From the UHGV virus genome UHGV-0310767: a DNA stretch of 64,000 bases; one strand, given 5' to 3'. The notes beneath the pieces are model-generated. The model was given only the letters and a program-made list of their open reading frames with translations, did not search any database and was not told where the DNA came from. The stretch's first letter is position 1. Every line of letters begins with the position of its first letter. The translations under genes were made by a program, and so were the position numbers. The DNA is from a virus. Positions 1 to 40,461 of this stretch are shown here, in pieces.

Positions 1-3000
1 TAAATAGTAGTAATTTTCAGATTTTAGTTGCGGCAACATTGGATGCCGCTAATATACAAAAACAGTTAAACGCAATATCCAAAAAATATGGAACGATGAA
101 GATTAATTTAGATGTAGACAATACATCTTTAAATAATGCCACTAACTCATTAAATAATTATCAGCAAGGTTTAAAACAAACTAGTGAAGCGGCACAAAAT
201 ACATCTCAAAGCATTGGAGACATTATAGGTAAAGTAACCAAATTTGGGGGGGCTACTTTAATTATAAATAAATTTCGACAAGCAATTGTTGATGGATATG
301 GTGCAGTAAAAGAACTTGATGCTTCTGTAACAGAATATAGAAAAGTATCAGAACTTACAGATTCTCAAATGGGAGGTTTCATTGATACCGCCAGAGAATT
401 AGGTTTAACAGTGGCAAGAACAGCAGATGAAATGGTAGAAGCGGCTACAGAATTTAAAAAGATGGGTAATGATGATTCCACATCTTTACAGTTAGGTAGA
501 TTAGCTACTATGTTTCAGAATATTGCTGATGAAGCAATAAGTGCTGGTGATAGTGCTAGTTTTATTAACTCTCAGATGAAAGCATTTAATTTTACAGCTA
601 ATGAAGCTATTCATGTTTTGGATGCTGTTAATGAGGTAGCTAATAATTTTGCTGTTTCTTCTGGTGATATTTCTACAGCTTTACCCAAAGTTGCTAGTAC
701 AATGGCATTAGCTGGAAATAGTTTTGAGGAAACTATAGGATTACTTACGGCTGGTGCTGAAATAATTCCTAATCAGGCTTCCAGAATTGCTAGAGGTTTA
801 CGTTCTATCACTTTGAATCTTCAAGGTTTAAATGAGGATGGAGAGCAAGTTGCTGGAATGGCGGCTTCTATGCAGGAAGAATTTGATAAGTTAGGTATTT
901 CTTTGCTGGACAATCAGGGACAGATTAAAAGTACTTATCAGATTTTTAGCGAATTAGCAGAAATTTTCCCAAAATTAGATAAAAATACACAAACGTATTA
1001 TGCTAGTTTGATTGGCGGTAAAACTCAGGTAGACGTAGTAACAGCCATACTTAAAAACTTTGAAACTGCACTTAACGCTACAGATACAGCTATAAATTCT
1101 GTTGGTTCTGCCATGATAGAAAATGAGAAATATCTTGATTCTATTCAAGGTAAATTATCTGCTTTAAATTCTGAATTTGAGAAATTCTGGACAGAAGGAA
1201 TCAGTTCAGATATGGTAAAACAGATAGTTGAATTTGGAACAGGTGTTCTTAAATTAGTAAATGCTTTAGGTGGATTACCTACTATTCTTACAGCCGTAGT
1301 AGGAATTATAGCTACTTTAAAAGGCTATAACATAATAACTTCTTTAGGTAAAATGGGAAGTTCGTTAGCTAATGTTATAGGTTTAGTAGTTAGTTTAAGG
1401 AAAGATGGTTTTTCTTTAATTGAAATATTTACTGGCTTATCTTCTAGTGCTACATTAGCAAGTGTGGCTATTGGTGGAGTTGCGGCGGCCTTAACTATAG
1501 GTGTTGCGGCCTATTCTTATTATACTCAAGCACAAGCCAAAGCAAGAGAAGAAGCTTTAAAAGCCGCAGAAGATTTCGGCACAGAAGCCACTTCTTTAGC
1601 AGATTTACAGAAAAAGTATAATGAAATATGGACTTCTCAAGATGATGAAGAAACAAAAGCTACTAAATTAGCAGAAGTTAGAAAAACTTTAACTGACCAG
1701 TATGGGCTTGAAAAAGAACAATTGGATAAGTTAAATGAAAGTCGTGAAGCTGGAAATGCTTTATTAAACGAAGAAGCTTTTTCAAAAGCCGCAGAAGCTT
1801 ATGCAAAAAGTGTAGACGAAATACAGAAAGCACAAGAATATCTCCTTAATAATTCTATGCTTAATTATGGTGTAGATATAGGAAATAATTTAAGTGATGA
1901 AGTATTTGCTAAATTAGATAAAGCTTTTAAAGATGTATCTGAAAAAGCGCAAGGAATGATTGTAAATCTTAAAGGTACACCAGAAGAATTAGAAAAAGCT
2001 TTAGTAGAAGCTATCAATTATATGTCAGCTTTAGAGAATCCCACTCAAAATGAAATAAATTTATTAAATCGTTTTAAGAGTGATTTAAGAAGTTTATCGA
2101 AAGAAATTGATAGTTCTAATGAAGTTATAAGTAGAACACAGCAAGCTTATCTGCTTAATAACGATGCAGTTCAAACTTTCCTTAATTCCAGTTATCAAAC
2201 AAAGGAAGAAATGGAAGCGGCAAAACAAGTAGTGTTAGATAGTTTAACACCTCTTGATTCTTACCGTAAAGGTTTTGAAAATATTGTTAGTAGTGCGTTC
2301 CCAGAATGGAGCGAAAGTTCTAAAGAAAATGCAGAAGATTTAAGAGTTGAAATGAACAATGGTTCTGATGCCGCCGAGGAATATGCTAAAAAGATAAAAG
2401 AATTAGCAGGAAGTTTAAGTGAATGTCAAACTGCCTATGATACACTTACAGAGGTAGCAAAGGAATACAATGAAACTGGTAACTTAAATGTTGAAACTTT
2501 ATCGAAATTATTAAAGCTTAATCCAGAGTTTTACCAAGCTTTATCTATGCAAGAGGGAAAGCTGGTTGTCAATACTGAACTTCTTAACCAGATGGCTCAG
2601 GAGTACGCTACAAATGCGTACAGCGCAGTAACAGCGGCCCAAGGGGTTGATACCTTATCTACTTCGTTGGATGGAACTGCAACGGCAGGAATTGACGCTA
2701 CTCAGCGAATAACCGAAGCCGGGAACGCCGCTATAGAAGCAGGACAGAAAGCTTTAGAAGGTGCAAAAGGATTTAGGTCACTTATAGGAAGTATGGGGAC
2801 ATTTGTCAGTACTTTAAAAAGTGGTTTAACTGGTGATAATGGAGATGGAACAAAAGAGTATGGTCATGCTTTTGATGCTCAAGTTCAAGCTTATCAAAAG
2901 AAACAGCAAGATGATTTATTAGCCCATTTATTTGATGGGATTTCAATTGATACTAGTGGTGGAAAGAAAAAGGGTGGTGGCAAATCTGGTAAGGATAGTG

Positions 3001-4535
3001 CAGAGAAAGCCGCCAAAGAAGCCGCAAAAGCTTACAAAGAAGAATTTGAAAAACGTATCAGCGAAATTAAATTTAAGTTTGATATGGGAGATGTTACTGA
3101 ACTAGGATATTGGAAAGAAGTAGATAAAATAGTTCAGGAATTTTATGCTAATAATGAAGCTTATGCAGAAGAATATAGAGATTGGACAGCTAAGATACAA
3201 AAAGGAATGGTATCTGGAACTAAAGCAAACTTTGAATTAGAAAGGGATGCTTTAGACCATAAGTTAGCTATGGATTTGATTTCTCAAGAAACTTATTATA
3301 GAGAACTTGAGAAATTAAGACAAAAGTATTATGCACAGGATGCTATTTATGCGGCACAAAGTGAAGATATCGAAGAAGAAATATATGCTTTTAAGAAAAA
3401 GAAATTAAAAGATTTAGCAGAAGAACGTAAGAGACAGCGTAAAAAAGAATGGGATGAAGAAACAGATTGGTTAAATGAGCAGAAGTCACGTTATGAAACT
3501 GCTTTTAATTATATTGATTCTTTAGCCCAGAAAGAAATTGATGCTCTTGAAGAACAAAAGAAAGCTATTGAAGATAAATACAATGCAGAGATAGATAAAA
3601 TCAATGAAGCGCAAGATGCTTTAAATGATGAAATTGAATTGCAGGAAAAGTTAGAAGCTTTAGCCAAAGCTCAGAACACAAAGATTAGAGTTTATCGTGA
3701 AGGTGTAGGTTTTGTTTATGAAAATGACCAGTCTGCCGTAGATGAAGCCAAAGCCGCTCTTACACAGTATCAGAAAGAACAGGATACTAAGAAAGAGATT
3801 AAACGATTAGAAGATATTAGAGATGCTACAATCGAAAGTGTAGAGGAACAGATTGAGTATTGGGAAAAGTATAGGGATGAATGGAAAGACATGGTTAATT
3901 CCTATACAGAACAACAGAACAAACTTATTGCTGAACAGGTTTTAGGTATTTCACTTGAAGGTGAAAACTGGGAAAAACGTTTAGGAAATTTACAAGATTA
4001 CGTAGATAGATATAACAGCATTCTTTCTCAATTGAAACATAGAGGAAGTTATGATGATGATGATGATGATTGGGACGATGATGATTATGATTATGGTACT
4101 GGTGGAGGTGGTGGCTCTGCTGGTGGAGGTGGCACAATTGGCCCGTCTGACCATGCTGGAAGTGGTGGACATTGGGATTCCAGTGATTCATCACATGGCC
4201 CCGGTGTAGCCGCTAATGGAACAACGACAGGCCATGGTCTTACAATGGTAGGAGAAAAAGGTAGAGAATTAAGAGTTTTAGGAAACGGAGTAAACGAAGC
4301 TGACGGTATTGTTCCTAATCATTTGACTGAGAATCTTATGAAATTAGGACAATATTCACCTAGAGAATGGATTAATGCTCTTACACACAATCCTGGTAAT
4401 CAACAGTGTTCAACGCAGTATTCTTATGCGTTTGATAGTCTAGTATTACCTAATGTAACTAATGCAGATAGCTTTATTAGTGAATTAAAAAATATTAAAA
4501 ATCAGGCAATTCAGATGGGAGGAAGGAGGTTTTAA
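1..4535 (+). CDS. Tail tape measure protein, 5'-partial (the reading frame is open to the window start). Long coiled-coil alpha-helical protein with a C-terminal poly-Asp/poly-Gly low-complexity segment.
   Basis: 1498-aa ORF of TMP-like composition (A/E/K/L/Q-rich, coiled-coil heptads). Position immediately upstream of the tail/baseplate genes. No in-frame stop between nt 3 and 39, so it is probably truncated by the window edge. Confidence 0.8.
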   Translation, partial: NSSNFQILVAATLDAANIQKQLNAISKKYGTMKINLDVDNTSLNNATNSLNNYQQGLKQTSEAAQNTSQSIGDIIGKVTKFGGATLIINKFRQAIVDGYGAVKELDASVTEYRKVSELTDSQMGGFIDTARELGLTVARTADEMVEAATEFKKMGNDDSTSLQLGRLATMFQNIADEAISAGDSASFINSQMKAFNFTANEAIHVLDAVNEVANNFAVSSGDISTALPKVASTMALAGNSFEETIGLLTAGAEIIPNQASRIARGLRSITLNLQGLNEDGEQVAGMAASMQEEFDKLGISLLDNQGQIKSTYQIFSELAEIFPKLDKNTQTYYASLIGGKTQVDVVTAILKNFETALNATDTAINSVGSAMIENEKYLDSIQGKLSALNSEFEKFWTEGISSDMVKQIVEFGTGVLKLVNALGGLPTILTAVVGIIATLKGYNIITSLGKMGSSLANVIGLVVSLRKDGFSLIEIFTGLSSSATLASVAIGGVAAALTIGVAAYSYYTQAQAKAREEALKAAEDFGTEATSLADLQKKYNEIWTSQDDEETKATKLAEVRKTLTDQYGLEKEQLDKLNESREAGNALLNEEAFSKAAEAYAKSVDEIQKAQEYLLNNSMLNYGVDIGNNLSDEVFAKLDKAFKDVSEKAQGMIVNLKGTPEELEKALVEAINYMSALENPTQNEINLLNRFKSDLRSLSKEIDSSNEVISRTQQAYLLNNDAVQTFLNSSYQTKEEMEAAKQVVLDSLTPLDSYRKGFENIVSSAFPEWSESSKENAEDLRVEMNNGSDAAEEYAKKIKELAGSLSECQTAYDTLTEVAKEYNETGNLNVETLSKLLKLNPEFYQALSMQEGKLVVNTELLNQMAQEYATNAYSAVTAAQGVDTLSTSLDGTATAGIDATQRITEAGNAAIEAGQKALEGAKGFRSLIGSMGTFVSTLKSGLTGDNGDGTKEYGHAFDAQVQAYQKKQQDDLLAHLFDGISIDTSGGKKKGGGKSGKDSAEKAAKEAAKAYKEEFEKRISEIKFKFDMGDVTELGYWKEVDKIVQEFYANNEAYAEEYRDWTAKIQKGMVSGTKANFELERDALDHKLAMDLISQETYYRELEKLRQKYYAQDAIYAAQSEDIEEEIYAFKKKKLKDLAEERKRQRKKEWDEETDWLNEQKSRYETAFNYIDSLAQKEIDALEEQKKAIEDKYNAEIDKINEAQDALNDEIELQEKLEALAKAQNTKIRVYREGVGFVYENDQSAVDEAKAALTQYQKEQDTKKEIKRLEDIRDATIESVEEQIEYWEKYRDEWKDMVNSYTEQQNKLIAEQVLGISLEGENWEKRLGNLQDYVDRYNSILSQLKHRGSYDDDDDDWDDDDYDYGTGGGGGSAGGGGTIGPSDHAGSGGHWDSSDSSHGPGVAANGTTTGHGLTMVGEKGRELRVLGNGVNEADGIVPNHLTENLMKLGQYSPREWINALTHNPGNQQCSTQYSYAFDSLVLPNVTNADSFISELKNIKNQAIQMGGRRF

Positions 4536-4570
4536 CCTCCCCTCTTTACATAAAAAAGGAGTGAGATATT

Positions 4571-4843
4571 ATGACAGGAAATTTTGATATAAATAAAGAA
4601 TTATTGGATGTAATGAGAATTATCGCAAGACAAGAAATAGAAAAATGTAATAGAGATATTACAAAAACTGCTAGAGTAATAGCGGTAAATACTGATAAAA
4701 CAGTTAAAATAGAAATGGATGGAAAACAATATGATAATATTCCTAATTATAATGGGACTACTTTAACAACTAATGATATTGTAAAAGTAACTTATCCTCA
4801 AGGACAGACAAGTAATATGTATATATCTGGGGGGGGCGTTTAA
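4571..4843 (+). CDS. Small tail-module protein (90 aa). Ends in GGGV, encoded by a G8 tract, and is possibly the N-terminal half of a protein fused with the next ORF.
   Basis: Good RBS (aaaggagtgagatatt ATG). ORF ends at the G8 tract 4829-4836. Confidence 0.5.
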   Translation: MTGNFDINKELLDVMRIIARQEIEKCNRDITKTARVIAVNTDKTVKIEMDGKQYDNIPNYNGTTLTTNDIVKVTYPQGQTSNMYISGGGV

Positions 4844-4848
4844 TAATA

Positions 4849-5097
4849 TTGGGTATAACTGATTATGGAATTTTGCAATTAAAATCAGAAAATTCAAATC
4901 CTAGTAGTCCAGAAGGTTCGCAAATTTCATTTCATGGAATGGGTGGAGATACAGGAAAAGGTCAAGATTATTTGTGTTTAGATGCTAATAATGGAGATAT
5001 AAGAATATTTGGTAATTTTGGAGGGGGAGATATTGTAAAAGTGTATGCTTTTACAAATGATGGGTTATATTTTGATGGCAAGAAAATAGGGCCTTAA
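4849..5097 (+). CDS. Small tail-module protein (82 aa) with no RBS of its own. Probably the continuation of 4571..4843 after a +1/-2 slip in the G8 tract.
   Basis: TTG start without an RBS. In frame with the upstream ORF if the G tract is 9 (or 6) long. Confidence 0.4.
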   Translation: MGITDYGILQLKSENSNPSSPEGSQISFHGMGGDTGKGQDYLCLDANNGDIRIFGNFGGGDIVKVYAFTNDGLYFDGKKIGP

Positions 5098-6264: not shown

Positions 6265-7018
6265 TTTCGTAGGTTACAACTTCGTACAAGATAGTAACGC
6301 CCTCGACCCATCACCTAGTAGTGTAAATAACATAACTAGCATTCAGTTACAGAATGGTATTTACGATTATTTTCATTTGACCAATAATGTAACAGCCGAA
6401 TATTCTCCTATTGAGCCTTTAGAATGGGCTTATTTGGATATTATCAATGCTAATTTTAATGGTAATATCAATGGTGGTAACGTTGAGTTCTTATTGGATT
6501 ATTTGACAGCTATCAAAGTAAAGAGAAGAATAAAAGGAACTTTCAACTGGGTAACTTTGAAAACAGTTCCAGTTAAAACATTTGATGATTTAAACTTCGT
6601 GTTTAGGGATTATCTTAACGGAAATTTTGTGGATTATGAGTATGCTTTGGTTCCAATTCTAAATGGGGCCGAAGGAGATTATATAACCAATAGTATTACC
6701 AGCCAATTTGCAGGAGTGTTCTTATGTGATAAGGATACTATATACAAATATTATGCTGGTGTTTCTTATGGTAGTGCAAAACGTGTGAAAAAAGTAGGAG
6801 TATTTGAAGCTTTTGGTAGTCAGTATCCTATTGTAGTATCAAACGCTTTAACGAATTATCATTCTGGTAGTGTAAGCGGAACGATTCTTCCTAAAGATTA
6901 TGATGAAACTAGAGCCTTGAATAGAATGGCAATTGTACAACAGGGTAAAGAATTAATTGACTTTATTACAAATAATAAAGCAAAAATTCTAAAAGACTTA
7001 ACATTATGTGTTGCATAA
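6248..7018 (+). CDS. Baseplate/tail structural protein (256 aa). Possibly exon 1 of an intron-interrupted gene.
   Basis: Overlapping start with the upstream gene (translational coupling). Followed by a 310-nt structured non-coding region, an endonuclease ORF, and a short in-frame-looking coding segment at 8205..8370. Confidence 0.5.
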   Translation: MERMFSFVGYNFVQDSNALDPSPSSVNNITSIQLQNGIYDYFHLTNNVTAEYSPIEPLEWAYLDIINANFNGNINGGNVEFLLDYLTAIKVKRRIKGTFNWVTLKTVPVKTFDDLNFVFRDYLNGNFVDYEYALVPILNGAEGDYITNSITSQFAGVFLCDKDTIYKYYAGVSYGSAKRVKKVGVFEAFGSQYPIVVSNALTNYHSGSVSGTILPKDYDETRALNRMAIVQQGKELIDFITNNKAKILKDLTLCVA

Positions 7019-7331
7019 TATAGGTCGCTTTCATAGTGATATGAAAGAAAAATAATATATTGAATTGCTGGAAACCCCTAAAGCCGCATGAACCACAACG
7101 TAAGTATGAAATAAGACTAAGCGTGATGGTGACGAAAGTAGAAAGAATCATGTGGATGGCATAAGGTTAAATCCTAAGTGCTAATATAAAATGGGCAATC
7201 AGCCGCCAAGCCTTGAATAGAGGAAGGTTCAACGACTATCCCGTAAGGGAGTACACTGCAAGCGATTGGCAGTGGAAGTGGTATACGTCTTATAATCTTG
7301 ACCAATACTATAAAAAGAAGGAGGTGAAAAA

Positions 7332-8093
7332 ATGGTGATAGATAATCAAATGGTTGAAATGAAATGGCATCCAAGAAATAAACAATATTATACAGATTTG
7401 GGTTATATCTACACGAAAATAGGTGATAAATTTGAAGTGAAAGTAGAACATTTAACTAAAGGAGCAAAATCTTTAGTAGATGTTCGTTGTGATTATTGTG
7501 GGAAAATAATTAAAGTAAAATACCAAAATTATATAAATAGATATAGTCCCACATTAAAAGATGCTTGCACTCAGTGTAAAACTAAGAAAGCTATAGATTC
7601 TAATTTAAATAGATATGGAGTTTCAAATGTTTTTGAATTAGAAGATATAAAAAGCAAAAGTAAAAATACATTTTTGGAGAAATATGGAGTAGACCATTAT
7701 TCTAAGTCTACTGATTTTAAAAATGTAGTTCCTAACAAAATAAGAAAAACTTTGTATAGAAATGGTACAGTTCCTACTTCCAGTCAACAATTAAATATAT
7801 ATGATTTGTTGAAAACTAAATATAAAGAATGTTTCATTAATTATCCTTGTGGTTCATGCTCTTTAGGTTGTTTAGTGAAGGAAAAAGGTGTATCTATTGA
7901 TATAGAATATGATGGCAATTATTGGCATCAAGATAAACAAAAAGATAGAAAAAGAGATGAATTTATTAAGTCTCAAGGTTATAAAATATTAAGAATAAAA
8001 AGTGATAGAAATATTCCCACTTTAAAACAGTTAGTAAAAGCTATTAATTGTTTGGTCAAGAGCAATCATAGCTATAAGGAAATAAGATTATAA
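7332..8093 (+). CDS. Putative homing endonuclease, either free-standing or intron-encoded. N-terminal CxxC...CxxC zinc ribbon plus a C-terminal nuclease-like domain (IEYDGNYWH ... RDEFIKSQGYKILRI).
   Basis: Two Cys pairs (CDYCG, CTQCK). The C-terminal motif resembles Vsr/PD-(D/E)XK-type homing endonucleases. Inserted into the structural module between coding segments. Strong RBS aagaaggaggtgaaaaa ATG. Confidence 0.4.
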   Translation: MVIDNQMVEMKWHPRNKQYYTDLGYIYTKIGDKFEVKVEHLTKGAKSLVDVRCDYCGKIIKVKYQNYINRYSPTLKDACTQCKTKKAIDSNLNRYGVSNVFELEDIKSKSKNTFLEKYGVDHYSKSTDFKNVVPNKIRKTLYRNGTVPTSSQQLNIYDLLKTKYKECFINYPCGSCSLGCLVKEKGVSIDIEYDGNYWHQDKQKDRKRDEFIKSQGYKILRIKSDRNIPTLKQLVKAINCLVKSNHSYKEIRL

Positions 8094-8388
8094 GACGAAG
8101 ATATAGTCTGTGCTTTATAGAAATATAAAGATGCACGTAATGGTGCTGACATAATGTAGCGAATTATGTTGAACAAAAACAGGGAATGGAAATGTATGGT
8201 TGATTATGCCAATTGGAGAGCCAACTACTAGTTATAATAGTAGCTGGGGTATGGGTAAAATTGATGTAAACTTTGAGTATGTAGAGGTAGGAGATGCCAA
8301 TTCAGAAAGTGATTTAATGTCACTGGGATTGATTGAACCATCGGTTGATACTTCTACAATTAATAAATAAAGAAAGGAGTAGATTAAT

Positions 8389-28721: not shown

Positions 28722-29027
28722 TTACTGCTTTTTATCCATATCCTGTTCTTGATATACTTCTTCTTTGGTCAGCACAATAAAATTTAAAGGGACTCGGTTT
28801 TTGTTTGGTTTTTCCAAAAGAATTAAATTTTCTATAGCCCCTATATTATCATTGTTTTCCGTTGTAATTAAAAGATTATTCATGGGACAGATATATTTAT
28901 CAGATTCATGAAGGATTTTATAATACTTTCCTTTTGTCCATATTACCAAAGGGGCAAAATCTTTCCCCTTTGGATTTGGCAAACTTACATCTTTCAAGCA
29001 TTTTAAAAATTTTACACTGCTGTCCAA
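28722..29027 (-). CDS. Hypothetical protein (101 aa)
   Basis: ORF overlapping the helicase stop. Confidence 0.35.
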   Translation of the reverse strand: MDSSVKFLKCLKDVSLPNPKGKDFAPLVIWTKGKYYKILHESDKYICPMNNLLITTENNDNIGAIENLILLEKPNKNRVPLNFIVLTKEEVYQEQDMDKKQ

Positions 29028-32000
29028 AATGTATCATCCTCCGTTTCTTCGTTATTCATAATTTCTTTTTGTGAAGTTTTTAATTCATAACTCTTAAGCA
29101 GAAAATCTTTTAATTGAGTTTGTCGATTTTCATTTCCATCAATAGCAATACAATTTTCTACAGTACTTAAATCTCCTATTTGGGTAGTTTCTTGAGATGC
29201 CCTAGAAATCCCAGTGTAAAGAAGATTATTATTGAAACTTCTTTCATGACATTTTAAGCTAAGAAATATAATATGGGGACACTGAGAGCCTTGATATTTA
29301 TGGATAGTTCCAGCATAACCTAGTACAAGTGAGTTACAATCGTCCCCTTTGAATACTACCATATTTTCATCAAACTGGATGATTAGAACGTTGTTAGCAT
29401 CAATATCCAGGATTTTACCTATATCTCCATTGAACACTCCTACAGTTTCTTGAGCAAGACTTAAATCTACTTCTCCTGTTTCTTCTAAAATTCTTTTGTA
29501 AGTTTCGTAAGTAGGTACAGTGTAATTGTTTTTGGTATTCATTACAATGTCTCCCTTACGAAAAGTAATAGTACAATCTTTTACATCTCTTTCGATTACT
29601 CTTTCATTTTTTCTTGCCGGGTTAATAGCCGATTGAATAAGATTATTAATCCTATAAGTTCCAAATTCTTTTACATTCCATGGAGTAATAACCGCAATAT
29701 CAATTGGTTTAATTCCCCGGTTAATTTTTTCCATGTAAGTATCCAGAATTTGTTCTGTGGTTCCATTACTTTTTATAAATGTGTAATCTTTATTAATTCC
29801 CAATACACATTTAACTCCATCTTCAAAATTAAGTTTTTCGTGTATAGAAAGTTTATTATAAATATCATTGACGATAGCGGATAATCCACCTTCTTTGTAA
29901 CGAAATACTTTAGTAAGAGTGATAACAGGAATGATATTGCTTTCTATAAAATCTCTCATGACACAACCTAAAGCAATGGAAGGAAGCTGATGAATGTCTC
30001 CACTAAATACAAATCTTACATCTGGATTAGAACAAGCTTTAACTAACATCATCATATGTTCTAATCCATACATAGACCATTCATCACATATAATCACATC
30101 TGAATCTATACCACCATCAGCTTGTGCCTGGGAACATCCTTTATGAACAGTAGAAGCTTTTCTATGAGTTTGTTCCGCTAATCTTTTAGCGGCCCTTCCC
30201 GTAGGTGCAAATAGAGAATAGGTTTTTCCATTATCTTCTAGCATATTTATTAATGCCATCATAGAAGATGTTTTACCACAATTCCCAGTAATGAAAATAT
30301 TATTCTTTCTACGTAATACTAACATTCCTGTCTCCACTTCAAAACAATATTTAAAGCCGTCTATAGATTTAACTTTAATTATTTCTGTTTGTTTTTTATG
30401 AGTAGGACGTGAATCTTTAGTGATAGTTAATAAATTTCTGGTGGTAATTGCTAATTCATATTCTGTACTTTTAGTAACATATTCTTTGTTGTTAATCTTT
30501 CTAATTCTTCCTATTCTATTTTTTTCTTTTAAAGATGCTTTATAGTCACAAGCACTAAAAGCAAATTGTATAAAGTTAGCTGTAGAAAGAACAGTTGTGG
30601 AAAAAGTTTTTCTATTTCCAATAATACTTCCATCCCATTGTAAAATATTGTCACACACAATTTGTAACTGTTTTTGTGTACAATTATACCAATAAGATAA
30701 AAATTCTTTTTCTTTACGTGGTGCATAAATATAAAAATCTGTATAACCTTCTGCGGCAGATTCTTTTTCTCTCCATTGTAAATTAGATTCTTTAAAAAGA
30801 TTACGAAGGTCATCTTTTTTTCTTTGTTTCTTTATATGAAATCTACATAATGTAGTATTACTATGCGTAAATGTTCCATCACATATAACAGCACACATTA
30901 TTTTAATTTCATTGTCTGTTAAATCAATACCCTTTCCATCGTATCTAAAGCTGATAATAAATTTTCCTCTAAATCCTCTTTCATTAGTTTCGTGTTTATT
31001 TTTTAAATCTAACATAGTAGTAAATTTTAATTGCTGTTTTCCTCTATCGCTGTAAATATAAGGTATAACATGTTCTTCGCTTAAAGTTTGATTAAGTCCA
31101 TACTTAGTTTCAAAATGATACATTTCATTACATGGCAATTTGATATAGCGCAAAGGCTTTACCAACTCTGCGGTTCCATCAACATTATACTGTAATACTT
31201 TTTCTTCTGGGATATATTGAGCAATAGATTTCCATTCTTTTCCATTAAAATATTCTGTTTCAGAATCTACGCAACCTGCCCCGGCATTAAGTACAGCAAC
31301 TCTATTTTCGCATACTACATGAAGTAATTCACTCTGTTCATCTGTTAATGTGCCGTCTTTTATTTTTGTATATTTTTTCCATTCAAAATTCCAAGCTGGC
31401 CCAGGAGTACATAAGATATCAATAAAAAAATCTGCAATGGTAGATTCTGCTATATAAGTATCTGCTTTAGCAATACGCTTAGTAGCATCATCATACCAAA
31501 TCTTTTGACTTTCAACACATGTTTTTTTAATATGAGGAATACAATCTTTATCTATTTCAGCGCAGAAGCCAGCCATTGTATTTGCATCCATATATGTGTT
31601 ATCATCTTCTTCGTTAAGATTTAATATATGAAGTGCAATATGTTCAATACGATTGGCAGATTCTTTTAACTCTGGTCGTATTTTCATAAGTAATTTATCT
31701 GTTCTTAAAAAGTCTCTATGCAGTACATCTATAAGAACAGAATAAGGTTCTTTGTTAATAGCTTCTTCTACAGCTTCAACAGAACCATATACGTTATCCA
31801 ATTCCTGGCATTCCCCAATAGTTAAATCATAATTCTTATGATGGATTAAAATATAATAATACTTAAATCTGGTATTAATTTCTCTGATGTAACAATTCAA
31901 TCTGTATTCTTTGATGTTTTTTAATTTCTTAACATCTATTTCCTCTGTTTTACCATTTATTACCATGGCAATAAAATTGGGATATACAGTTAATAAAGTA

Positions 32001-32338
32001 TTGGCCTGAGTTTCCGTAGTGAATTTAGTAAGAATCTCCATAGACTGTTCTATAGTTAATTCTTCCAAATCCTTAACTATCTCATAATCCTTTACTTTTT
32101 CTACCATGTACTGTAATCCATACCTGGGATGATTGACTTGTTTTAAATCCAGTGTATAGGATTCCCCATTTTTAAGAAAAGATAAATCTCCTGAGATAGT
32201 AAAATTGCCATATTTGTTAAGGCTTATTTTACTTTCATCTTTTGGATTGTCTAACAAACAGGCGAAAGTCCTATAATTATTAGAAGAATATATTTCCCTA
32301 ATGATAGTACATTTGATTCCCTCAATAAATCTTTCCAT
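29012..32338 (-). CDS. RecD/Dda-like SF1 DNA helicase interrupted by an intein in the Walker A motif (extein about 777 aa).
   Basis: After intein removal the P-loop reads VLNAGAG|CGKTSS. Motif Ia is FAPTGRAAKRL. The C-terminal SF1 motifs include YAGTIHKYQGSQ. Confidence 0.8.
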   Translation of the reverse strand: MERFIEGIKCTIIREIYSSNNYRTFACLLDNPKDESKISLNKYGNFTISGDLSFLKNGESYTLDLKQVNHPRYGLQYMVEKVKDYEIVKDLEELTIEQSMEILTKFTTETQANTLLTVYPNFIAMVINGKTEEIDVKKLKNIKEYRLNCYIREINTRFKYYYILIHHKNYDLTIGECQELDNVYGSVEAVEEAINKEPYSVLIDVLHRDFLRTDKLLMKIRPELKESANRIEHIALHILNLNEEDDNTYMDANTMAGFCAEIDKDCIPHIKKTCVESQKIWYDDATKRIAKADTYIAESTIADFFIDILCTPGPAWNFEWKKYTKIKDGTLTDEQSELLHVVCENRVAVLNAGAGCVDSETEYFNGKEWKSIAQYIPEEKVLQYNVDGTAELVKPLRYIKLPCNEMYHFETKYGLNQTLSEEHVIPYIYSDRGKQQLKFTTMLDLKNKHETNERGFRGKFIISFRYDGKGIDLTDNEIKIMCAVICDGTFTHSNTTLCRFHIKKQRKKDDLRNLFKESNLQWREKESAAEGYTDFYIYAPRKEKEFLSYWYNCTQKQLQIVCDNILQWDGSIIGNRKTFSTTVLSTANFIQFAFSACDYKASLKEKNRIGRIRKINNKEYVTKSTEYELAITTRNLLTITKDSRPTHKKQTEIIKVKSIDGFKYCFEVETGMLVLRRKNNIFITGNCGKTSSMMALINMLEDNGKTYSLFAPTGRAAKRLAEQTHRKASTVHKGCSQAQADGGIDSDVIICDEWSMYGLEHMMMLVKACSNPDVRFVFSGDIHQLPSIALGCVMRDFIESNIIPVITLTKVFRYKEGGLSAIVNDIYNKLSIHEKLNFEDGVKCVLGINKDYTFIKSNGTTEQILDTYMEKINRGIKPIDIAVITPWNVKEFGTYRINNLIQSAINPARKNERVIERDVKDCTITFRKGDIVMNTKNNYTVPTYETYKRILEETGEVDLSLAQETVGVFNGDIGKILDIDANNVLIIQFDENMVVFKGDDCNSLVLGYAGTIHKYQGSQCPHIIFLSLKCHERSFNNNLLYTGISRASQETTQIGDLSTVENCIAIDGNENRQTQLKDFLLKSYELKTSQKEIMNNEETEDDTFWTAV
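30281..31273 (-). mobile_element. Intein (331 aa) inserted in the helicase P-loop, probably with a degenerate LAGLIDADG homing-endonuclease core.
   Basis: Starts CVDSETEY (Cys1) and ends ...IFITGN followed by Cys+1. Block-B-like TLSEEHVIPY. The flanking extein halves reconstitute GAGCGKT. Confidence 0.75.
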
Positions 32339-33303: not shown

Positions 33304-34797
33304 TTATTCTTCCTCTCTATCTGCCCTTTCAAATTGTAATGATAAACTTAAATCAGGATTTACATTACGAATTTTTATTACACTATGCGTAAAGACAGAA
33401 TTTTTATATTTCTTTGCTATAAATTCTTCTTCATCATCTTCACTTTTACGATATCCTGATATCATAAGTAGTGTACCTTTTTTAAACCAATTAGTATCTT
33501 CGTCAAATTCTTCTGTTTCACTAATACTTTTTTTATAGTAAGCATACTGTCCTTCATTAAATTTAACCATAACTACATCATTATCTGGTGTAAGAAGATT
33601 AATAAAATGTTTACTGTCGTTACGACTTAATACCACACCACATATTCTTGAAAGGTCGTATTGTCTCCATTTTCTTTTCCCATTCTTACTACTTTTTTCT
33701 ACAAAAATAGGAGATGTGGGTAAATCTTGATAATGACTAATATTATATTCTTCAAAATCAATACCTGTAAGTTCGTGCTTATCTGGATAAAAAGAAATGG
33801 TTTCCATACTCCATTTAGGAATATTTTCATACTTTACCAGATTCATATATTCTTGTTGCCAATATTTCTTATTGTATTCTTCTACTAAAGATGGATTATT
33901 AATATAGCTTATTAATTCATCTAATTCTGGTTTTAGAACTTTATCCAAAGATTTATCAATAACAATAAGCATATCATTCTCGTAATAAAAATCTTTTCCT
34001 TCTGTAAGGTCATTAATATAATGTTCCTCAAAGAATGGTCTAGCAAATTTATCCTCAAGTATATAATCTTTTTTAGTCTTAAATTTCTCATTCTTACGAT
34101 AAAAGAAATTAGGACTTTCTACATATTTTCTAAAGTTATATACTTTAACAAGGTGTTTAGGAAGCGTACAACCCAATTCTAAGCATTTAGAAAGATTAGC
34201 CATAGTAAGAGTTGTCTTAGCTGGATTCTCCCAGCATATAAGCCATTTAAGCATTAATATCTTATCATCACATAATGAATCGAAACAACCAGCTTTAATT
34301 AAAGTGGCAAATATACTTTTTGTAACTAAACTTTTTCTATAAATCATATTTCCTTTTTCGTCCAATTCTCCCGTGGGAACTAATAAATTCTTCTGATAAT
34401 CATAAAATTCTTTGAACGAATTATAAGGTCTGCCGCTCATAATATCTTTGGCAACATCCCTATTCATTTTAGTAATTCCACCTAATCCAAAAAGAATTAA
34501 ACTTTCGTCTACTAAAGGAGTAAAGGATAAGTCTGATTTATTTATATCTGGCGGCAATGTATTTATACGATAATCTTTCATACGATAAATAGCTTTTGCC
34601 ATTTTTTCATAATTAGTTCCAGTATTCTTTTTCTTTCTTTCTAAATCTTCATATTCATCTTCATTTTCTTCTGTTGATGAAGATTCTACAGTTAAACAGG
34701 CACAAGCCCAAAATACAGGAGGAAAGAAGTAATTTACATTGAGTTCTTGTAAACCAATTACTGAGTAAGCGTACGAATGTAATTGGGAAAAGGAATT
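33304..34797 (-). CDS. dnaE: DNA polymerase III alpha subunit (DnaE-type) exon 3 (C-terminal part: HhH and OB region). The 5' boundary is approximate.
   Basis: The frame is open from 34797. Encodes ...HSYAYSVIGLQ...FWACACLTVESSS...TLPPDINKSDLSFTPLVDESLILFGLGGI, matching the DnaE FNKSHSAAYALVSYQ ... ILPPDIN ... FGLGAIKGVG region. Confidence 0.7.
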   Translation of the reverse strand, partial: NSFSQLHSYAYSVIGLQELNVNYFFPPVFWACACLTVESSSTEENEDEYEDLERKKKNTGTNYEKMAKAIYRMKDYRINTLPPDINKSDLSFTPLVDESLILFGLGGITKMNRDVAKDIMSGRPYNSFKEFYDYQKNLLVPTGELDEKGNMIYRKSLVTKSIFATLIKAGCFDSLCDDKILMLKWLICWENPAKTTLTMANLSKCLELGCTLPKHLVKVYNFRKYVESPNFFYRKNEKFKTKKDYILEDKFARPFFEEHYINDLTEGKDFYYENDMLIVIDKSLDKVLKPELDELISYINNPSLVEEYNKKYWQQEYMNLVKYENIPKWSMETISFYPDKHELTGIDFEEYNISHYQDLPTSPIFVEKSSKNGKRKWRQYDLSRICGVVLSRNDSKHFINLLTPDNDVVMVKFNEGQYAYYKKSISETEEFDEDTNWFKKGTLLMISGYRKSEDDEEEFIAKKYKNSVFTHSVIKIRNVNPDLSLSLQFERADREEE

Positions 34798-36188
34798 TCA
34801 ATAGTTTTAATTGCATTTCTACAACATATGTATTCCATAAACATATGAAATCATATGAACTATTGAGGACTATATCTTTGTAAAAATTAAAAAATGAATG
34901 AATGATATTATAAAAAATAACAAAGACGACAATTTTTTTAGTTTCTATTTAATTTCCTTTTATTAGGATTATTCCTAACTAATGTAGATTTAGTAATCCC
35001 CGTCATTTCAGCCACTTCATCATAGGTATGAGTTTTTAATAATTCTAATGCTTTACTCATATCTTCTTCTGAATAAGCTTTATAACTTTTACCTCTTTCG
35101 ATATTCCACATTCTACCTTCATTATCAGGAACTTCATTATTAAAACAAAACCATAATTGTTCCCTAGTTATAGGTAATGTAGCAATAGAAGTATAAGTGT
35201 TTACTTCATTATTCTTAATAGAAGTATATTTTTTAGGCTTATTATCATTGACAGCTTTTATTCTTTCTACATCTATTTGACTAGGAATTTTTGCATATCT
35301 CTCAATTAAAATATTATAATCTCTATAATAATGATTTTTATAAGATAAACGATACATTCTCATAGTATCTTTATTTTCATCATTATAAGAATTATAAACT
35401 TTAATCAACTCTCCATTTTCGTCATATTCTACACATTTTCTACTATTAGATTCTGTAGCTTTAAGTTGATTAATTCTACAAGATTCTTTACGTTTTTCAC
35501 TATCTTTGTTAATCAAACCAGTAGCAGAAGCATGAATCATATTAAGTTTTCTGTCTACCCATTCTAAATTAGTAGCTTTATTATTAGTTTTATCTCCATC
35601 AATATGATTTACTTCTTTATATTGTTCTGGTTTAGGATTTTCACAAAAAGCAAATGCTACTAATCTATGAACCATATAGTTATGTCCTTTTAAATTAATT
35701 CCCATATATCCAGTATTATTATTTTTGCAAGATTTTATATTCTTTTTGTTATGTTTTATATTGCCTAAATTACTTATATAATAATCTTTACTTCCCTCAA
35801 TCTCTTTCCAAATTTCCATTCTTTCTGAATTTTTCATATTTTCCTCCTTTCTTCATTATTTTTTAAAACAATCATTCATTCATCATCATTCATTTTTTAA
35901 TATTACAGATTTGCACTTCCATTAACGTATCAATAGTTAATGTACTTCCTGTCGGAATAGTCTCTACATCTTCTTTAATATTACTATTAAAGCTTGACAC
36001 GGTATTATCAGCTATCTATATATCTTAATATAGACCTTAGAATTTCTTAGTCAGCGGCTTCGTCCTTTTTATTATGCTGTAATCTAGTTGTAACTCTTGT
36101 ACAGCGGTCTTATTCAACTGATACCGTTAGCATTGCACTTCTATGCAACACACCCCTGATAGGGTTCACAAATCATGACCATTATTAC
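34798..36188 (-). mobile_element. Group-I-intron-like intervening sequence 2 in dnaE, carrying an HNH endonuclease ORF. Boundaries are approximate.
   Basis: About 1.39 kb between the dnaE coding segments. The homologous DnaE sequence stops at ...FGY and resumes at ...SQLHSYAYS. Contains ORF 34938..35837 plus about 350 nt of non-coding structured sequence. Confidence 0.6.
34938..35837 (-). CDS. Intron-encoded HNH homing endonuclease (NUMOD4/HNH_3-like; 299 aa).
   Basis: N-terminus WKEI...YYISNLGNI (NUMOD4-like) then HRLVAFAF...VNHIDGDKTNNKATNLEWV (HNH_3). Confidence 0.7.
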   Translation of the reverse strand: MKNSERMEIWKEIEGSKDYYISNLGNIKHNKKNIKSCKNNNTGYMGINLKGHNYMVHRLVAFAFCENPKPEQYKEVNHIDGDKTNNKATNLEWVDRKLNMIHASATGLINKDSEKRKESCRINQLKATESNSRKCVEYDENGELIKVYNSYNDENKDTMRMYRLSYKNHYYRDYNILIERYAKIPSQIDVERIKAVNDNKPKKYTSIKNNEVNTYTSIATLPITREQLWFCFNNEVPDNEGRMWNIERGKSYKAYSEEDMSKALELLKTHTYDEVAEMTGITKSTLVRNNPNKRKLNRN

Positions 36189-37313
36189 ATAGCCAAAACT
36201 CATACCAAATAATTCATACCATATATAATTGGCAAATAATTCTCTACACCCTTGTTTAATACAATGCTCAAAGAACATGATTCTTGTGGCTTCTAACACT
36301 TCATCGTCTTTTTTTGCTATAGCTTTTCTTAATTTATTGGCCTGTTTAAGACTAAATCCTGCAACTCTTTTATCCATGGAAATAAGCATAACTTTTTCCT
36401 GGGATTCTGGAAGCATACGAGAATCAGAACAATATTGTCTTATAACGTCCATTTCATCTTCTGTTAATCCATATTCATGACAATCTTTTTCCCATTCTTT
36501 TACATCGGCATATCTAGCATATCTCTGTAATGGAGTCTCAGTAGTTTCACCACTACCCATCAATCGTAATATGGAATTAGTTGCAGATAACTCCATTAAA
36601 TTTTTGGGCTGTACTACATTAATAGCATTTACTGACACAGGAGTATCGAACTGAAATAAAGAATAAATATCTTTAATGATTCCCCACATAGAAGGATTGT
36701 CATAATTTATAACATCTGGATGTAAGTACTTATCATATGTTGCTTTTAAATTACCTTGCCATTCTAAATATTTATGCTCAACCAATAAATCCATAGTAGT
36801 TCTTAATTTATCGCTGGCTTTTACTGTAAGCATATCTACTTTAACAATACCGCAATCTTCACAATCCTGCAAATCATAACAAGTACATAAATCTCCATTA
36901 GGGGCTTTCATACAAGAAATATAGTTAGTATAAGGCTCATTTGAGATAATTAATCCTGCGGCATGAAGTCCTCTACCAACGACAATTCCTTCTAAAGCTA
37001 ATGCACACTCTTTAAGATTAGGATACTTGTTAATTTCCTTTATAAATTCTTTTGCTGGTTTTCTATTTTTTTTAGTATTTCCTTCTAAACAATCCTTAAG
37101 ACTCCAAATCATTCCTCTTTCTACTGGAATTAAAGATTTAAGATATCCTGCGGCATCATCAGAAATTCCTAAACCTTTACAGGATTTTTCTATAGCTGTT
37201 TTGGAAGTCATTTCAGAAAATGTAGCCACTTTTAAAACCTTATCAAATCCCCAGAATTTTGCAATGTTGTGTGCAATAATTTGCTTTTTTGTATTCTGTG
37301 AATCTAAATCAAT
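36189..37313 (-). CDS. dnaE: DNA polymerase III alpha exon 2 (polymerase core middle part). Boundaries are approximate.
   Basis: Begins IDLDSQNTKKQIIAHNIAKFWGFDKVLKVATF (DnaE PD|IDIDF...VAQIATFG) and contains GRGLHAAGLIIS (DnaE GRHAAGVVI). Confidence 0.7.
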
Positions 37314-38163
37314 CCTTTATACCCCTGGTTTCCCAGTACTTTAACACATTTTATTTCAAATGTGGGAGTAGACTATATCTTCATCTTGTTTTATCAACAA
37401 GAGGATGGCACAGGATAAAAGGAATTTCACCTTTTACCACTTAGTCGTTTGAGTTTCAGCGCAATGTAATAAGTTTGAAATTTCTACTATAACCCCTTCT
37501 CATTAACATAGAATGTGAAACATCTAAATTATGAGAATCAATATATTTCTTTACCTCAGTGTTACCTTTTAATTTTGGACTTTTGTTACCATTAGGATAA
37601 ACTATTATATAATATAAATAATTTCTTACTGCATTTATTCCTGATGTTTCATAACTTTTATTTATATTTTCTTTTTGAGTTACCCATTCTAAATTGGTGT
37701 AATGATTATTAAGTGTATTTGCATCTTTGTGATTTACTACAGCACCTTCAAACCATCCAGGAACAAATGCCATAGCTACCAATTGATGAACCCCTTTTCT
37801 ATACACTTTATTATCCTTACTTAAGTCCACATATTTGTAACCGCCTTTATTAACAAATCCATTTAATATTTTGGGATTTTTATATTTATGGCTAATTACT
37901 TTTCCATCTTCTGTAACACTGTATTTTTCAAACTTATCAATTATTTTTTCTATTCTTTTTTTAATTTCCTTTCTACATATTCTTATTACTTGCGCCGCTT
38001 ACCACAGGATTACCATGCTTTTTTTAAAGTTTAGGCTTCCCCTGTTAGCACAATTCCTAATCATCATTTCCTATGATTCCTAAACGTGAATTGTACACCC
38101 TAGATTTCTAGGTTCACCATCTTATTTTCTATATGTCACCATATAGCCAGACTATTGAAGTTA
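37314..38163 (-). mobile_element. Group-I-intron-like intervening sequence 1 in dnaE, carrying an HNH endonuclease ORF. Boundaries are approximate.
   Basis: Exon 1 ends ...GIEIPD (last nt U) followed immediately by a stop. Exon 2 resumes IDLD after ...taaag|g. Contains ORF 37456..37830. Confidence 0.6.
37456..37830 (-). CDS. Intron-encoded HNH homing endonuclease (HNH_3; 124 aa).
   Basis: HQLVAMAF...VNHKDANTLNNHYTNLEWVTQKEN. Confidence 0.7.
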   Translation of the reverse strand: MDLSKDNKVYRKGVHQLVAMAFVPGWFEGAVVNHKDANTLNNHYTNLEWVTQKENINKSYETSGINAVRNYLYYIIVYPNGNKSPKLKGNTEVKKYIDSHNLDVSHSMLMRRGYSRNFKLITLR

Positions 38164-39585
38164 ATCTGGAATCTCAATACCTCTTTCTGTACTTAAATGT
38201 CTCCAATATGGAGCATAGTCACCCAAAGGTACAGGGTCAATTTGTGTAATTTCTAATAAATAACATGTTAAATATCCAAAAGCTGAACCTCTGGACGGCA
38301 TACAAAAACTATTTGATTCCCAAATTATTTCTACAATTCTACTTACACTAGTATAATAAGCCGCCATATGAGATTTGAATATTTCACTTAATCCTTTTAA
38401 TTCTTTAGCTTCTTTATTGATTCTATCAATATATGTTTCTAAATTCTTTTGTGGCTTACTTTCAATAAGTTTTTCTAACCCTTTTTCTACACGATAGAAA
38501 AAATACTGGTCTTGAATATTATCAGAATAAGCATAATATTTAAAATACTCATATTTATTATAATATTTTTTATATCTATGAGTAATTTTAAATTCTGGTA
38601 TTTTGTCCAATGGAATCTCTGGTATCATAGGCATATGTTTTAAATCATATGTTCTTACTCTATCTGCAATTTCATTACTATTTTTAAATATTGTATCTAT
38701 TTCTTCATCTGTAAATGTAATTCTTAAATGTTCCCTTAATTCCTGGGGAGACATAAGATAAGTAGTTGCATAGAAAGAATCTACTTCTCTGTCTCCATCT
38801 TTAGAATTAAGTAAAGTTTTATGATATAATGCTGATTCTTTGTTAAGATAATGAGTATCAGTTGTGGCTATAATTTTAAAACCATATTGTACTGAAAGTT
38901 CTTTCATGGCTTCATTCACTATAAGCTGGTCAACATTATCCTCTTTACACGGCTGAATCTCCAAGTAAAAATTGTTAGAGCCGAAAACTTTATTACACCA
39001 GGATAAAAAATCGCTTATGCGTTTTAAAACGCCTATACTCTTTTGTACCTCTTTATAACCCGGTTCTGGTTTCTTCCACTGCAAGATAAGTTTGTCAAGA
39101 TAGGAACCAAGACATGCAGAAGATGCAATTAAATGTCCTTTATTATTTCCGATAATTTCTTCTATATCAGAATAATAAGTTGGTCTACGCATAAGTCTAC
39201 GGGATGTATAAGCACGTTGCCATGCTTTACTACTTATTTCTCTTAATTGCTTATGACCTTCTGTATCTAAAGCAGTTAAAATAAAATGGTAATAGGGAGT
39301 ATAATCGGTTCCTTCTCTATTACTCATATCTTCTGCTTCACTCATAAGATATATTTCATTTCCTAATGCTAATTTAAAAGGTCTATCTTTCTCCATCTTT
39401 TCATAATATTTCAATGCTTGCATATGAGAAGATATACCTTCATGTTCTGTAATAGCTATTCCAGATAGCCCCAAATCATAAGCATACTGAATTAACTCAT
39501 TAACTCTAGTAATAGCATCAGGAAAACCTAATAACGCACTACTATAACATGAATGATTATGATTATCAAAATAAATATCTGTCAT
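38164..39585 (-). CDS. dnaE: DNA polymerase III alpha exon 1 (PHP domain plus the start of the polymerase core).
   Basis: N-terminus IYFDNHNHSCYSSALLGFPD (PHP HxH). Ends ...RHLSTERGIEIPD. Confidence 0.75.
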
Positions 39586-39924: not shown

Positions 39925-40461
39925 TTATCCTCCTTGCATTCCATATTCTTTTAATAAATCTTTTTGTGGTGCATACTCTCCAAACCATTCTAACTCTGCT
40001 TTTAATCTGGCTTTTATAGCATGTTCTTTTACGCTGTATTCACCTAAATGTTTTTGCCTACCATCTATAACAATATAGGCTCTCCATTTATTAGATTTCT
40101 GTTTCCATGATACTCCAATTATTCCAGAAGTATTATTTTTAGCTTTACTTCTATTCCTATTGTTTTCTTGTGAAGTACATTTTCTTAAATTACATCTTCT
40201 GTTATCTGTTCTTATTTTATTAATGTGGTCTACAAGGATTTCTCCTACCAGAAGGTTATGCATATAAACATTTTTATTATTTATTTTTGTAGTAACATAA
40301 CCGCTTGAATCAATATGCCAAGTGTAATCTTCTACAATTTCTCTATCTATTAGACTACACTTGAAATATTTATCTTTAGTAATATAACCTTTATAATAAG
40401 GGTATGCATAGTCTGAATCATCTTCATCCATACATGATTCCCATAGTTTTATATTACTCAC
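39925..40461 (-). CDS. Free-standing HNH endonuclease with a C-terminal AP2 DNA-binding domain.
   Basis: YMHNLLVG...VDHINKIRTDNRRCNLRKCTSQENNRN (HNH) then SGIIGVSWKQKSNKWRAYIVIDGRQKHLGEYSVKEHAIKAR (AP2). Confidence 0.65.
   Translation of the reverse strand: MSNIKLWESCMDEDDSDYAYPYYKGYITKDKYFKCSLIDREIVEDYTWHIDSSGYVTTKINNKNVYMHNLLVGEILVDHINKIRTDNRRCNLRKCTSQENNRNRSKAKNNTSGIIGVSWKQKSNKWRAYIVIDGRQKHLGEYSVKEHAIKARLKAELEWFGEYAPQKDLLKEYGMQGG

Follow-up and report, generated by a model that had tools for sequence, protein, structure and literature searches.

A probable three-exon dnaE gene with two HNH-bearing group I introns in a PMBT24-like Enterocloster phage, and the variable last base of the second intron

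The replicase gene dnaE lies in pieces on the minus strand of UHGV virus genome UHGV-0310767, a stretch of 64,000 nucleotides that is called the window here. Three open frames with similarity to DnaE (38161..39585, 36141..37229 and 33304..34602) have two HNH open reading frames (ORFs) between them. A first-pass annotation of the sequence had taken this arrangement for a dnaE gene split into three exons by two endonuclease-bearing insertions resembling group I introns, and every feature on which it relied is present: exon 1 closes with ...GIEIPD, and TAA comes immediately after it; the frame resumes 850 nt farther on with IDLDSQNTKKQ; exon 2 ends ...MSFGY, after which exon 3 resumes with SFSQLHSYAYSVIGLQ...; and each intervening sequence holds one HNH ORF, at 37456..37830 and 34938..35837. 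The boundaries given for the first insertion (37314..38163) also stand, whereas the second is best placed at 34797..36190 and not at 34798..36188. The region is 90-98% identical to that of six Enterocloster bolteae phages, which differ in their number of insertions. The reading developed here, and regarded as highly probable, is that dnaE of this PMBT24-like Enterocloster phage consists of three exons and two mobile, HNH-bearing group I introns.

An uninterrupted dnaE of 4038 nt exists in phage PMBT24 (OQ326496.2), where it is annotated as 'DNA polymerase III alpha subunit', as well as in IMG/VR contig L005. Exon blocks 1, 2 and 3 of the window are 96.3%, 98.0% and 99.5% identical to PMBT24 dnaE and abut at its nucleotides 1422/1423 (PD/ID; a slash within a sequence marks a junction) and ~2545-2547 (GY/SF). 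Since intronless alleles of a near-identical gene exist in PMBT24 and L005, the insertion points are fixed; among near-identical genomes the insertions are present or absent as exact units. Joining the three exon intervals (Table 1) in silico gives an ORF of 4038 nt, and its predicted product of 1345 amino acids and ~155 kDa is, judged by sequence, a complete Pol III alpha with PHP, DNA_pol3_alpha, finger and HHH_6 domains. It differs from the PMBT24 protein at 13 residues, none of them close to a junction, and aligns through both junctions with Pol III alpha of Taq (2hpi). Counted in that alignment, Taq D463 corresponds to D474, whose codon closes exon 1, and Taq D465 to D476, encoded by the second codon of exon 2. 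These two Taq residues are reported to be catalytic in the Taq structure papers; the alignment accordingly puts the catalytic Asp pair on either side of junction 1, and the proposal that the catalytic motif spans this junction holds.

The insertions are 850 and 1394 nt long, neither number being divisible by 3, and each junction has a stop at it or beside it. Two codons upstream of exon 2 there is an in-frame TAA, and the first ATG, GTG or TTG comes 28 codons downstream of the exon's start; at its other end the frame runs past ...MSFGY to a stop 15 codons later. Exon 3 has an in-frame TGA two codons upstream and its first start codon 64 codons downstream. These start-less beginnings of exons 2 and 3 are conserved and vary mostly synonymously across lineages (serines are specified by TCC, TCA, TCG or AGT). 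The junction stops, the non-triplet lengths and the 28 + 64 conserved start-less codons together require joining at the level of RNA.

Both insertions offer a P1 helix with a U.G pair at the splice site. In intron 1, CCAGAU at the end of exon 1 pairs with the internal guide sequence GUCUGG, which is identical in all intron-bearing relatives; the adjoining UCAAU can pair with AUUGA of exon 2 to form P10, and the 3' boundary (...AAAGG/AUUGAU) has the canonical 3'-terminal guanosine. In intron 2, GGCU(AU) pairs with (AU)GGUC; the register is ambiguous in this case because of a 2-nt AT repeat at the junction, and it is the U.G pair of P1 that decides. Across the family the guide sequence co-varies with its exon context (UGCCU with GGGCA, GGAU with GUCC, GGGU with GCUC).

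Behind P1, each insertion can be folded into the group I core, with P4-P6, P3-P7-P8 and the P3/P7 pseudoknot. The guanosine-binding site is formed by AAC-GACUA with UAGUC-U in P7 of intron 1 and by G-A(bulge)-GACUA with UAGUC-C in intron 2. The 5' core of intron 2 runs in the order P3 5' strand, a GUGAAC-hairpin-GGUGU-hairpin module, J3/4-P4-P5 (P5 carrying a long extension), P6, P7 5' strand, P7.1, P7.2 and P3 3' strand. The HNH ORF of intron 1 lies within the P6 stem loop (GCGCAAGUAAU.../...AUUACAUUGCGC) and that of intron 2 within the long P8 stem loop.

Covariation supports this fold. For the intron 2 family (13 sequences and 104 proposed pairs, with slid pairing partners and 500 shuffles as controls), 90.6% of cells are paired as against 37-44% with partners slid, and 56 pairs are changed on both sides as against 17-30. 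The covariation score is 0.403 compared with <=0.10 in the control, and none of the 500 shuffles attains the observed value. All pairs of P3, P5b, P5c, P6, P7.1, P7.2 and P8 are changed on both sides, and the outer P7 pair, which spans the bulge, is G-C in six of the 13 sequences and A-U in the other seven. (These counts are low for P1, distal P8 and P9, variable hairpins that MAFFT misaligned in distant members.) In the intron 1 family, with 12 sequences, the paired share of cells is 97.9% as against 33-48% when slid, and there are six different versions of P3, each fully complementary; in both families the variable pairs of P3 are all compensated. P4 and P7 are invariant and hence uninformative, save for the outer P7 pair just mentioned and for a swap in P7 of intron 1, where GACUA with UAGUC in the window stands against GGUCA with UGACC in the copies of other Enterocloster phages.

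A single gene of Staphylococcus phage Twort, orf142, contains three group I introns that self-splice, and intron 2 of this set has been crystallised. The J8/7-P7' element common to both window introns, AAGAUAUAGUC, has GAUAUAGUC as its Twort counterpart. A 98-position model (R1) of the P7-P7.1-P7.2-P3'-P8-P7' core, built from intron 2 family sequences only, matches Twort intron 2 from end to end (45.3 bits, E=5.6e-8; E-values from this model are rough) and Twort intron 3 (27.2 bits, E=6.7e-4), and thus connects the family with experimentally validated group I ribozymes. In the window it also matches intron 1 (20.6 bits, E=0.021) and a third locus at 7225..7299 (35.3 bits, E=1e-5). By BLAST, P4-P5 of intron 1 is 78% identical to Twort intron 1 over 46 nt, and P6-P7-P7.1 of intron 2 is 80% identical to Twort intron 2 over 44 nt.

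Table 1. Coordinates of the dnaE exons and of the elements assigned to the two introns (positions in the window).
Feature	Position	Strand	Remarks
dnaE exon 1	38164..39585	-	codons 1-474; PHP domain plus first palm half; last codon GAU = D474
Intron 1, group I, 850 nt	37314..38163	-	begins UAACUUCAAUAGUCUGG, ends ...UAUAAAGG; terminal G present
Intron 1 internal guide sequence GUCUGG	38147..38152	-	intron nt 12-17; pairs with exon 1 CCAGAU = P1, U.G at splice site
Intron 1 P3 5' strand GAUGG	38117..38121	-	partner CCAUC at 37404..37408
Intron 1 endonuclease ORF	37456..37953	-	NUMOD4 + HNH_3 (Pfam), I-HmuI-like; in P6 loop
Intron 1 catalytic core	37371..37446	-	P7 5' strand GACUA (37442..37446), P7.2, P3', P8, J8/7 + P7 3' strand
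Intron 1 J8/7 + P7 3' strand	37371..37381	-	AAGAUAUAGUC, read from sequence
dnaE exon 2	36191..37313	-	1123 nt; starts AUU GAU (I475, D476), ends ...UUU GGC U
Intron 2, group I-like, 1394 nt	34797..36190	-	begins AUGUAAUAAUGGUC, ends ...CUAUUGAA
Intron 2 internal guide sequence AUGGUC	36177..36182	-	pairs with GGCU/AU = P1, U.G after GGCU
Intron 2 5' core	35908..36174	-	P3 5' strand GAUUU (36170..36174) to P3 3' strand AAAUC (35908..35912)
Intron 2 P7 5' strand G-A(bulge)-GACUA	35958..35964	-	G-C pair next to bulged nucleotide
Intron 2 endonuclease ORF	34938..35837	-	299 aa; NUMOD4 + HNH_3 + C-terminal helix-turn-helix (HTH); in P8 loop
Intron 2 3' domain	34797..34878	-	J8/7 + P7 3' strand AAGAUAUAGUC-C at 34867..34878
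Intron 2 extended P9.0	34860..34866 and 34798..34804	-	UCAAUAG with CUAUUGA; encloses P9 hairpins
dnaE exon 3	33304..34796	-	starts AU UCC UUU (completes Y849, then SFSQLH...); runs to stop

With introns of this kind, dnaE would be transcribed as a single pre-mRNA in which each intron adopts a P3-P9 core while its guide binds the end of the preceding exon, the splice site being marked by the U.G pair of P1. Exogenous guanosine would cut the 5' splice site, and the freed exon would attack the 3' splice site placed by P9.0 together with P10. Joining would restore ...GIEIPD-IDLDSQ... and ...MSFGY-SFSQLH... and so the 1345-aa Pol III alpha; the predicted ligated junctions are CCAGAU/AUUGAU and GGCU/AUUCC, within the junction-spanning sequences GAGATTCCAGATATTGATTTAGA and TTTTGGCTATTCCTTTTCC. 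The endonucleases would cut or nick the intronless dnaE alleles of co-infecting phages, whose repair would copy the intron and flanking exon sequence (homing). Splicing, endonuclease activity and homing are what we infer here.

A number of observations weigh against the three-exon reading. The Rfam group I model (RF00028, Intron_gpI) has no match in the window at its gathering threshold or at E<=10, and it gives ORF-less relatives 12.6-13.3 bits where the threshold is 50. (The first-pass annotation had named Rfam models as the check for both introns and the failure of any group I model to fit as part of what would refute it; taken literally, that part is what was found.) The P3 5' strand is parted from J3/4 by two hairpins, which is not the Twort arrangement. 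The last nucleotide of intron 2 is A (34797) where G is expected, and the guanosine-binding pair of P7 is nonetheless the canonical G-C in all 20 contigs that have this intron at this site, A-ending copies included. The conserved N-terminal part of the intron 1 HNH ORF lacks a canonical start, and this gene may be decaying. Splicing itself is deduced from the DNA sequence. As to Rfam, the same model gives the three Twort orf142 introns (AF132670) 63.6-100.9 bits; because this control scores so high, the miss is taken as a limit of the model for this family and not as evidence against a ribozyme. By the covariation and the core model that finds the Twort introns, the group I fold of both insertions is established despite the Rfam result.

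The terminal base of intron 2 is a separate matter, one on which the first-pass annotation had not remarked. Three registers regenerate GGC UAU UCC: GGCU/.../AUUCC and GGCUA/.../UUCC end the intron in A, and GGCUAU/.../UCC ends it in U. With 5' and 3' splice sites shifted together, there is no register that restores the frame and ends in G; a choice that would end in G creates a stop (GGC UAA), shifts the frame, or removes or inserts residues in the conserved GYSFSQLH motif, and in the intron 2 of CB457P1 type the last 23 intron bases are devoid of G. The GGCU/.../AUUCC register is favoured by the U.G pair and by relatives that have G at exactly that position. Of the 20 contigs, 10 have A as the terminal base and 10 have G. 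This base directly follows an extended P9.0 stem of 6-9 bp that begins right behind the P7 3' strand and varies between lineages through compensatory changes. Terminal A goes with UCAAUAG and CUAUUGA (the window, L006, L007), with GAGUUG and CAAUUC (CB457P1, CB473P1, L008, L092, L096), and with GUAAUAAC and GUUAUUAC (L032, L088); terminal G goes with AGAAUG and CAUUCU (CB473P3), with GU(A)GAUG and CAUCAC (L009), with GAUGGAUU and AAUCCACUC (L084 and four metagenome contigs), and with GAGUUG and CAGCUU (L087, L097, L099).

Exon ligation by an intron that ends in A is unexplained: in the accepted mechanism the terminal G fills the G-binding site for this step (PMC2588497). The A-ending copies must at least be tolerated, because they are found in plaque-forming isolates (CB457P1 and CB473P1). 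It is possible, at somewhat less than even chances, that in this intron lineage, where the last nucleotide is A or G and the P7 site is unchanged, the second step does not require a terminal guanosine. The 6-9 bp P9.0 helix, stacked directly on P7, would then position the 3' splice site together with P10. Rather less probable, though the best of the alternatives, is that the A-ending copies are impaired or defective in exon ligation and that terminal A reflects a variant that is mildly harmful or regulatory, and not relaxed chemistry; full-length DnaE would be made only at a low level, or the phage would rely on another polymerase. The normal occupancy of the site by terminal G and retention of the G-specific G-C pair in P7 speak for impairment, as does the terminal G of related introns that other phages have at this codon (L013, L022, L040). 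On the other side, half of the 20 contigs have terminal A, on three different compensated P9.0 stems, which argues for persistence over time; the plaque-forming isolates have it too, and exon 3 is under continued protein-level constraint in the A-bearing lineages. No precedent for natural introns without a terminal G was found in the open-access literature searched, which is weak evidence. Should the A-ending copies ligate accurately and efficiently, they would be a natural exception to a rule held to be universal for group I ribozymes. The matched natural set of A- and G-ending copies allows a direct test of what the terminal guanosine contributes to exon ligation.

That the gene is simply split, its three pieces being translated separately and assembling into an active polymerase, is very improbable. 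GenBank relatives do have the pieces annotated as separate hypothetical proteins, and Rfam finds no intron, but pieces 2 and 3 would lose the 28 + 64 conserved start-less codons, including those for catalytic D476 and for GYSFSQLHS. Moreover, the insertions have a covariation-supported ribozyme fold, and ORF-less insertions are retained. Inteins, or 'fractured genes' in which a free-standing endonuclease gene separates split-intein halves, as in metagenomic dnaE (PMC2677866), are refuted by the sequence even though dnaE is a classic intein host and the neighbouring helicase gene in the window bears an intein-like insertion: the inserts are not in frame and stop-free (each junction has a stop at it or a few codons away, and neither 850 nor 1394 nt is divisible by 3), they hold non-coding structured RNA, and no intein halves flank the exteins. 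A group II intron was likewise considered and rejected, there being neither a domain V or Rfam group II match nor a reverse transcriptase in the window, and the core being that of group I.

The endonuclease ORFs of the two dnaE introns share the architecture of intron-encoded HNH homing endonucleases, a NUMOD4-like region followed by HNH_3, and match I-HmuI (1u3e) with E=1e-14 (intron 1) and E=1.5e-13 (intron 2). The only canonical start of the intron 1 ORF is the GTG at 37830. The I-HmuI match begins 32 codons upstream of this GTG, in an N-terminal part (37831..37953) that is open and contains no ATG, GTG or TTG; four copies of this stretch show two synonymous differences and one conservative difference. 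Translation might start at an in-frame AUA (37953), and these features suggest either non-canonical initiation (e.g. at this AUA) or a decaying gene. For the start-less N-terminal part, taken as 37831..37998 (minus strand), there is a start-stop, ATGTAG, just upstream in another frame.

The exons also carry traces that bear on mobility. The densest clusters of substitutions between dnaE of the window and that of PMBT24 sit on the junctions (6 of 18 nt at junction 1 and 9 of 36 nt at junction 2, the gene-wide divergence being 2.25%) and are all synonymous. The codon for D474 is GAU, which gives the U.G pair in P1, in all intron-bearing alleles examined, and GAC in intronless PMBT24. This is the pattern that homing with co-conversion, together with constraints from the guide sequence, would be expected to produce.

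In its relatives, dnaE of this phage clade carries 0-4 introns. CB457P1 has both insertions in ORF-less form (335 and 474 nt), CB473P3 has an ORF in the first only, and CB473P1 has ORFs in both. The two core motifs are found in 44 and 26 IMG/VR contigs, where many copies are ORF-less and in other genes or phages, and many are located in dnaE, at the GY motif or at the catalytic PD/IDxD motif. L006, L008 and L009 carry one more intron of this family; it is ORF-less, ~380 nt long, and ends 31 nt upstream of the intron 1 site, leaving a 31-nt micro-exon (AAGTACAGAAAGAGGTATTGAGATTCCAGAT) between two introns. L009 has another insertion of ~350 nt within exon 2 (4503..4852). In dnaE of other phages, members of the family are found at P/DIDxD, 3 nt from site 1 of the window, or at the same GY codon. 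The P/DIDxD site is occupied by an intron of the intron 2 family in Clostridium phage CS266P1 (L010, OP172775.1; 2480..3290) and in many IMG/VR loci (L011, L012, L016, L017, L038 and others), often with an HNH or GIY-YIG-like ORF in P6; these introns are unannotated in GenBank. A 251-kb IMG/VR phage contig (L053) that holds a group I intron of the dnaE-intron family also has a match to group II domain V/VI (1614..1698, minus strand; RF00029, 60.7 bits). According to the PMBT24 genome paper (PMC11035940), which offers no interpretation, an unrelated 157-aa ORF divides the tape measure protein of CB457P1 into two ORFs; this may be another intron with an endonuclease.

The window contains other candidate mobile elements. 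A third group I intron (6999..8182, plus strand; 1184 nt), the one matched by model R1 at 7225..7299, splits a gene of the tail/baseplate region. It has a P1 of GACU with GGUC, including the U.G pair, and ends ...ACAG; joining around it restores ...KILKDWNGNVW..., as in PMBT24. Its ORF (7332..8093; 253 aa) matches DUF7487 and DUF559 (Vsr-like nuclease). Five of six GenBank Enterocloster phages do not have this intron, and the sixth, CB457P1, matched only the 5' exon. The gene for a RecD-like helicase (ORF 29012..32338, minus strand) has an in-frame insertion of 331 aa (30281..31273) at the P-loop, LNAGAG/CVDSE...IFITGN/CGKTSS, with the intein hallmarks of Cys at position 1, terminal Asn and Cys at +1; there is no Pfam match to it. 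PMBT24, CB457P2 and CB473P2 share this insertion, and CB457P1, CB473P1 and CB473P3 lack it. Finally, a free-standing ORF with HNH_3 and AP2 (39925..40461, minus strand) lies two genes upstream of dnaE; in PMBT24 it is annotated as an HNH homing endonuclease.

Recognition of the introns has consequences for annotation. In five GenBank Enterocloster phages dnaE is deposited as three 'hypothetical proteins' and a 'DNA endonuclease', and the genome paper of PMBT24 does not mention introns (PMC11035940). Once the insertions are read as introns, the replicase is whole again, and some of the low nucleotide coverage that these genomes show against one another is accounted for. It also discloses a widespread family of phage group I introns that is invisible to the Rfam model. 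The clade further provides a natural series of 0-4 introns in one essential gene, ORF-bearing as well as ORF-less, that is suited to studies of homing and co-conversion.

That polymerase genes of Firmicutes phages are split by introns was offered as known by the first-pass annotation; HNH-bearing group I introns in a replicase have been known since SPO1, and several in one gene since Twort. The group I intron in the DNA polymerase gene of Bacillus phages SPO1 and SP82, which Goodrich-Blair et al. reportedly described in 1990 as encoding I-HmuI and I-HmuII, resembles those of the window in its location in a phage replicase, in its HNH endonuclease and in exon flanks that differ between alleles. 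Its host gene specifies a family A polymerase, whereas that of the window is of Pol III alpha (DnaE) type, and there is one intron in place of two (up to four in relatives). The likeness of the window ORFs to I-HmuI comes from the sequence match to 1u3e, and nicking by their products is a prediction. With Twort the window has in common several introns per phage gene, the P7-P7.1-P7.2-P8 core and, in intron 1, P4-P5 sequence. The Twort introns score 64-101 bits in Rfam and the window family <=13 bits; the latter has the GUGAAC-hairpin-GGUGU-hairpin(s) module between the P3 5' strand and J3/4, and window intron 2 has in addition its long P5 extension and lacks the terminal G.

Bastillevirinae phages have HNH-bearing, IA-like introns in replication genes, with small exons between adjacent introns (PMC11878797, NAR 2025), and the authors of that survey of Bastillevirinae/Bacillus phages note that Rfam and Group I Intron Sequence and Structure Database (GISSD) models may miss phage intron variants. 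With those of the window these introns share the HNH ORFs and a place in genes that serve replication in Firmicutes phages. They belong to another phage group and to other host genes, and dnaE is not among the host genes in PMC11878797 by text search ('polymerase III' occurs 0 times). The fractured dnaE genes of PMC2677866 are also interrupted at a conserved site and also have a homing endonuclease gene between the halves. Their interruption is removed at the protein level, whereas the inserts of the window are out of frame, bounded by stops and folded as ribozymes. The open-access literature searched yielded no precedent for group I introns in phage dnaE, which counts as weak evidence. HNH-bearing group I introns in a phage replicase, several to a gene, are thus ordinary as such. 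What is new is the DnaE-type host gene with one intron placed between the two catalytic aspartates, an intron family that escapes Rfam, and the A/G-polymorphic terminal base of intron 2.

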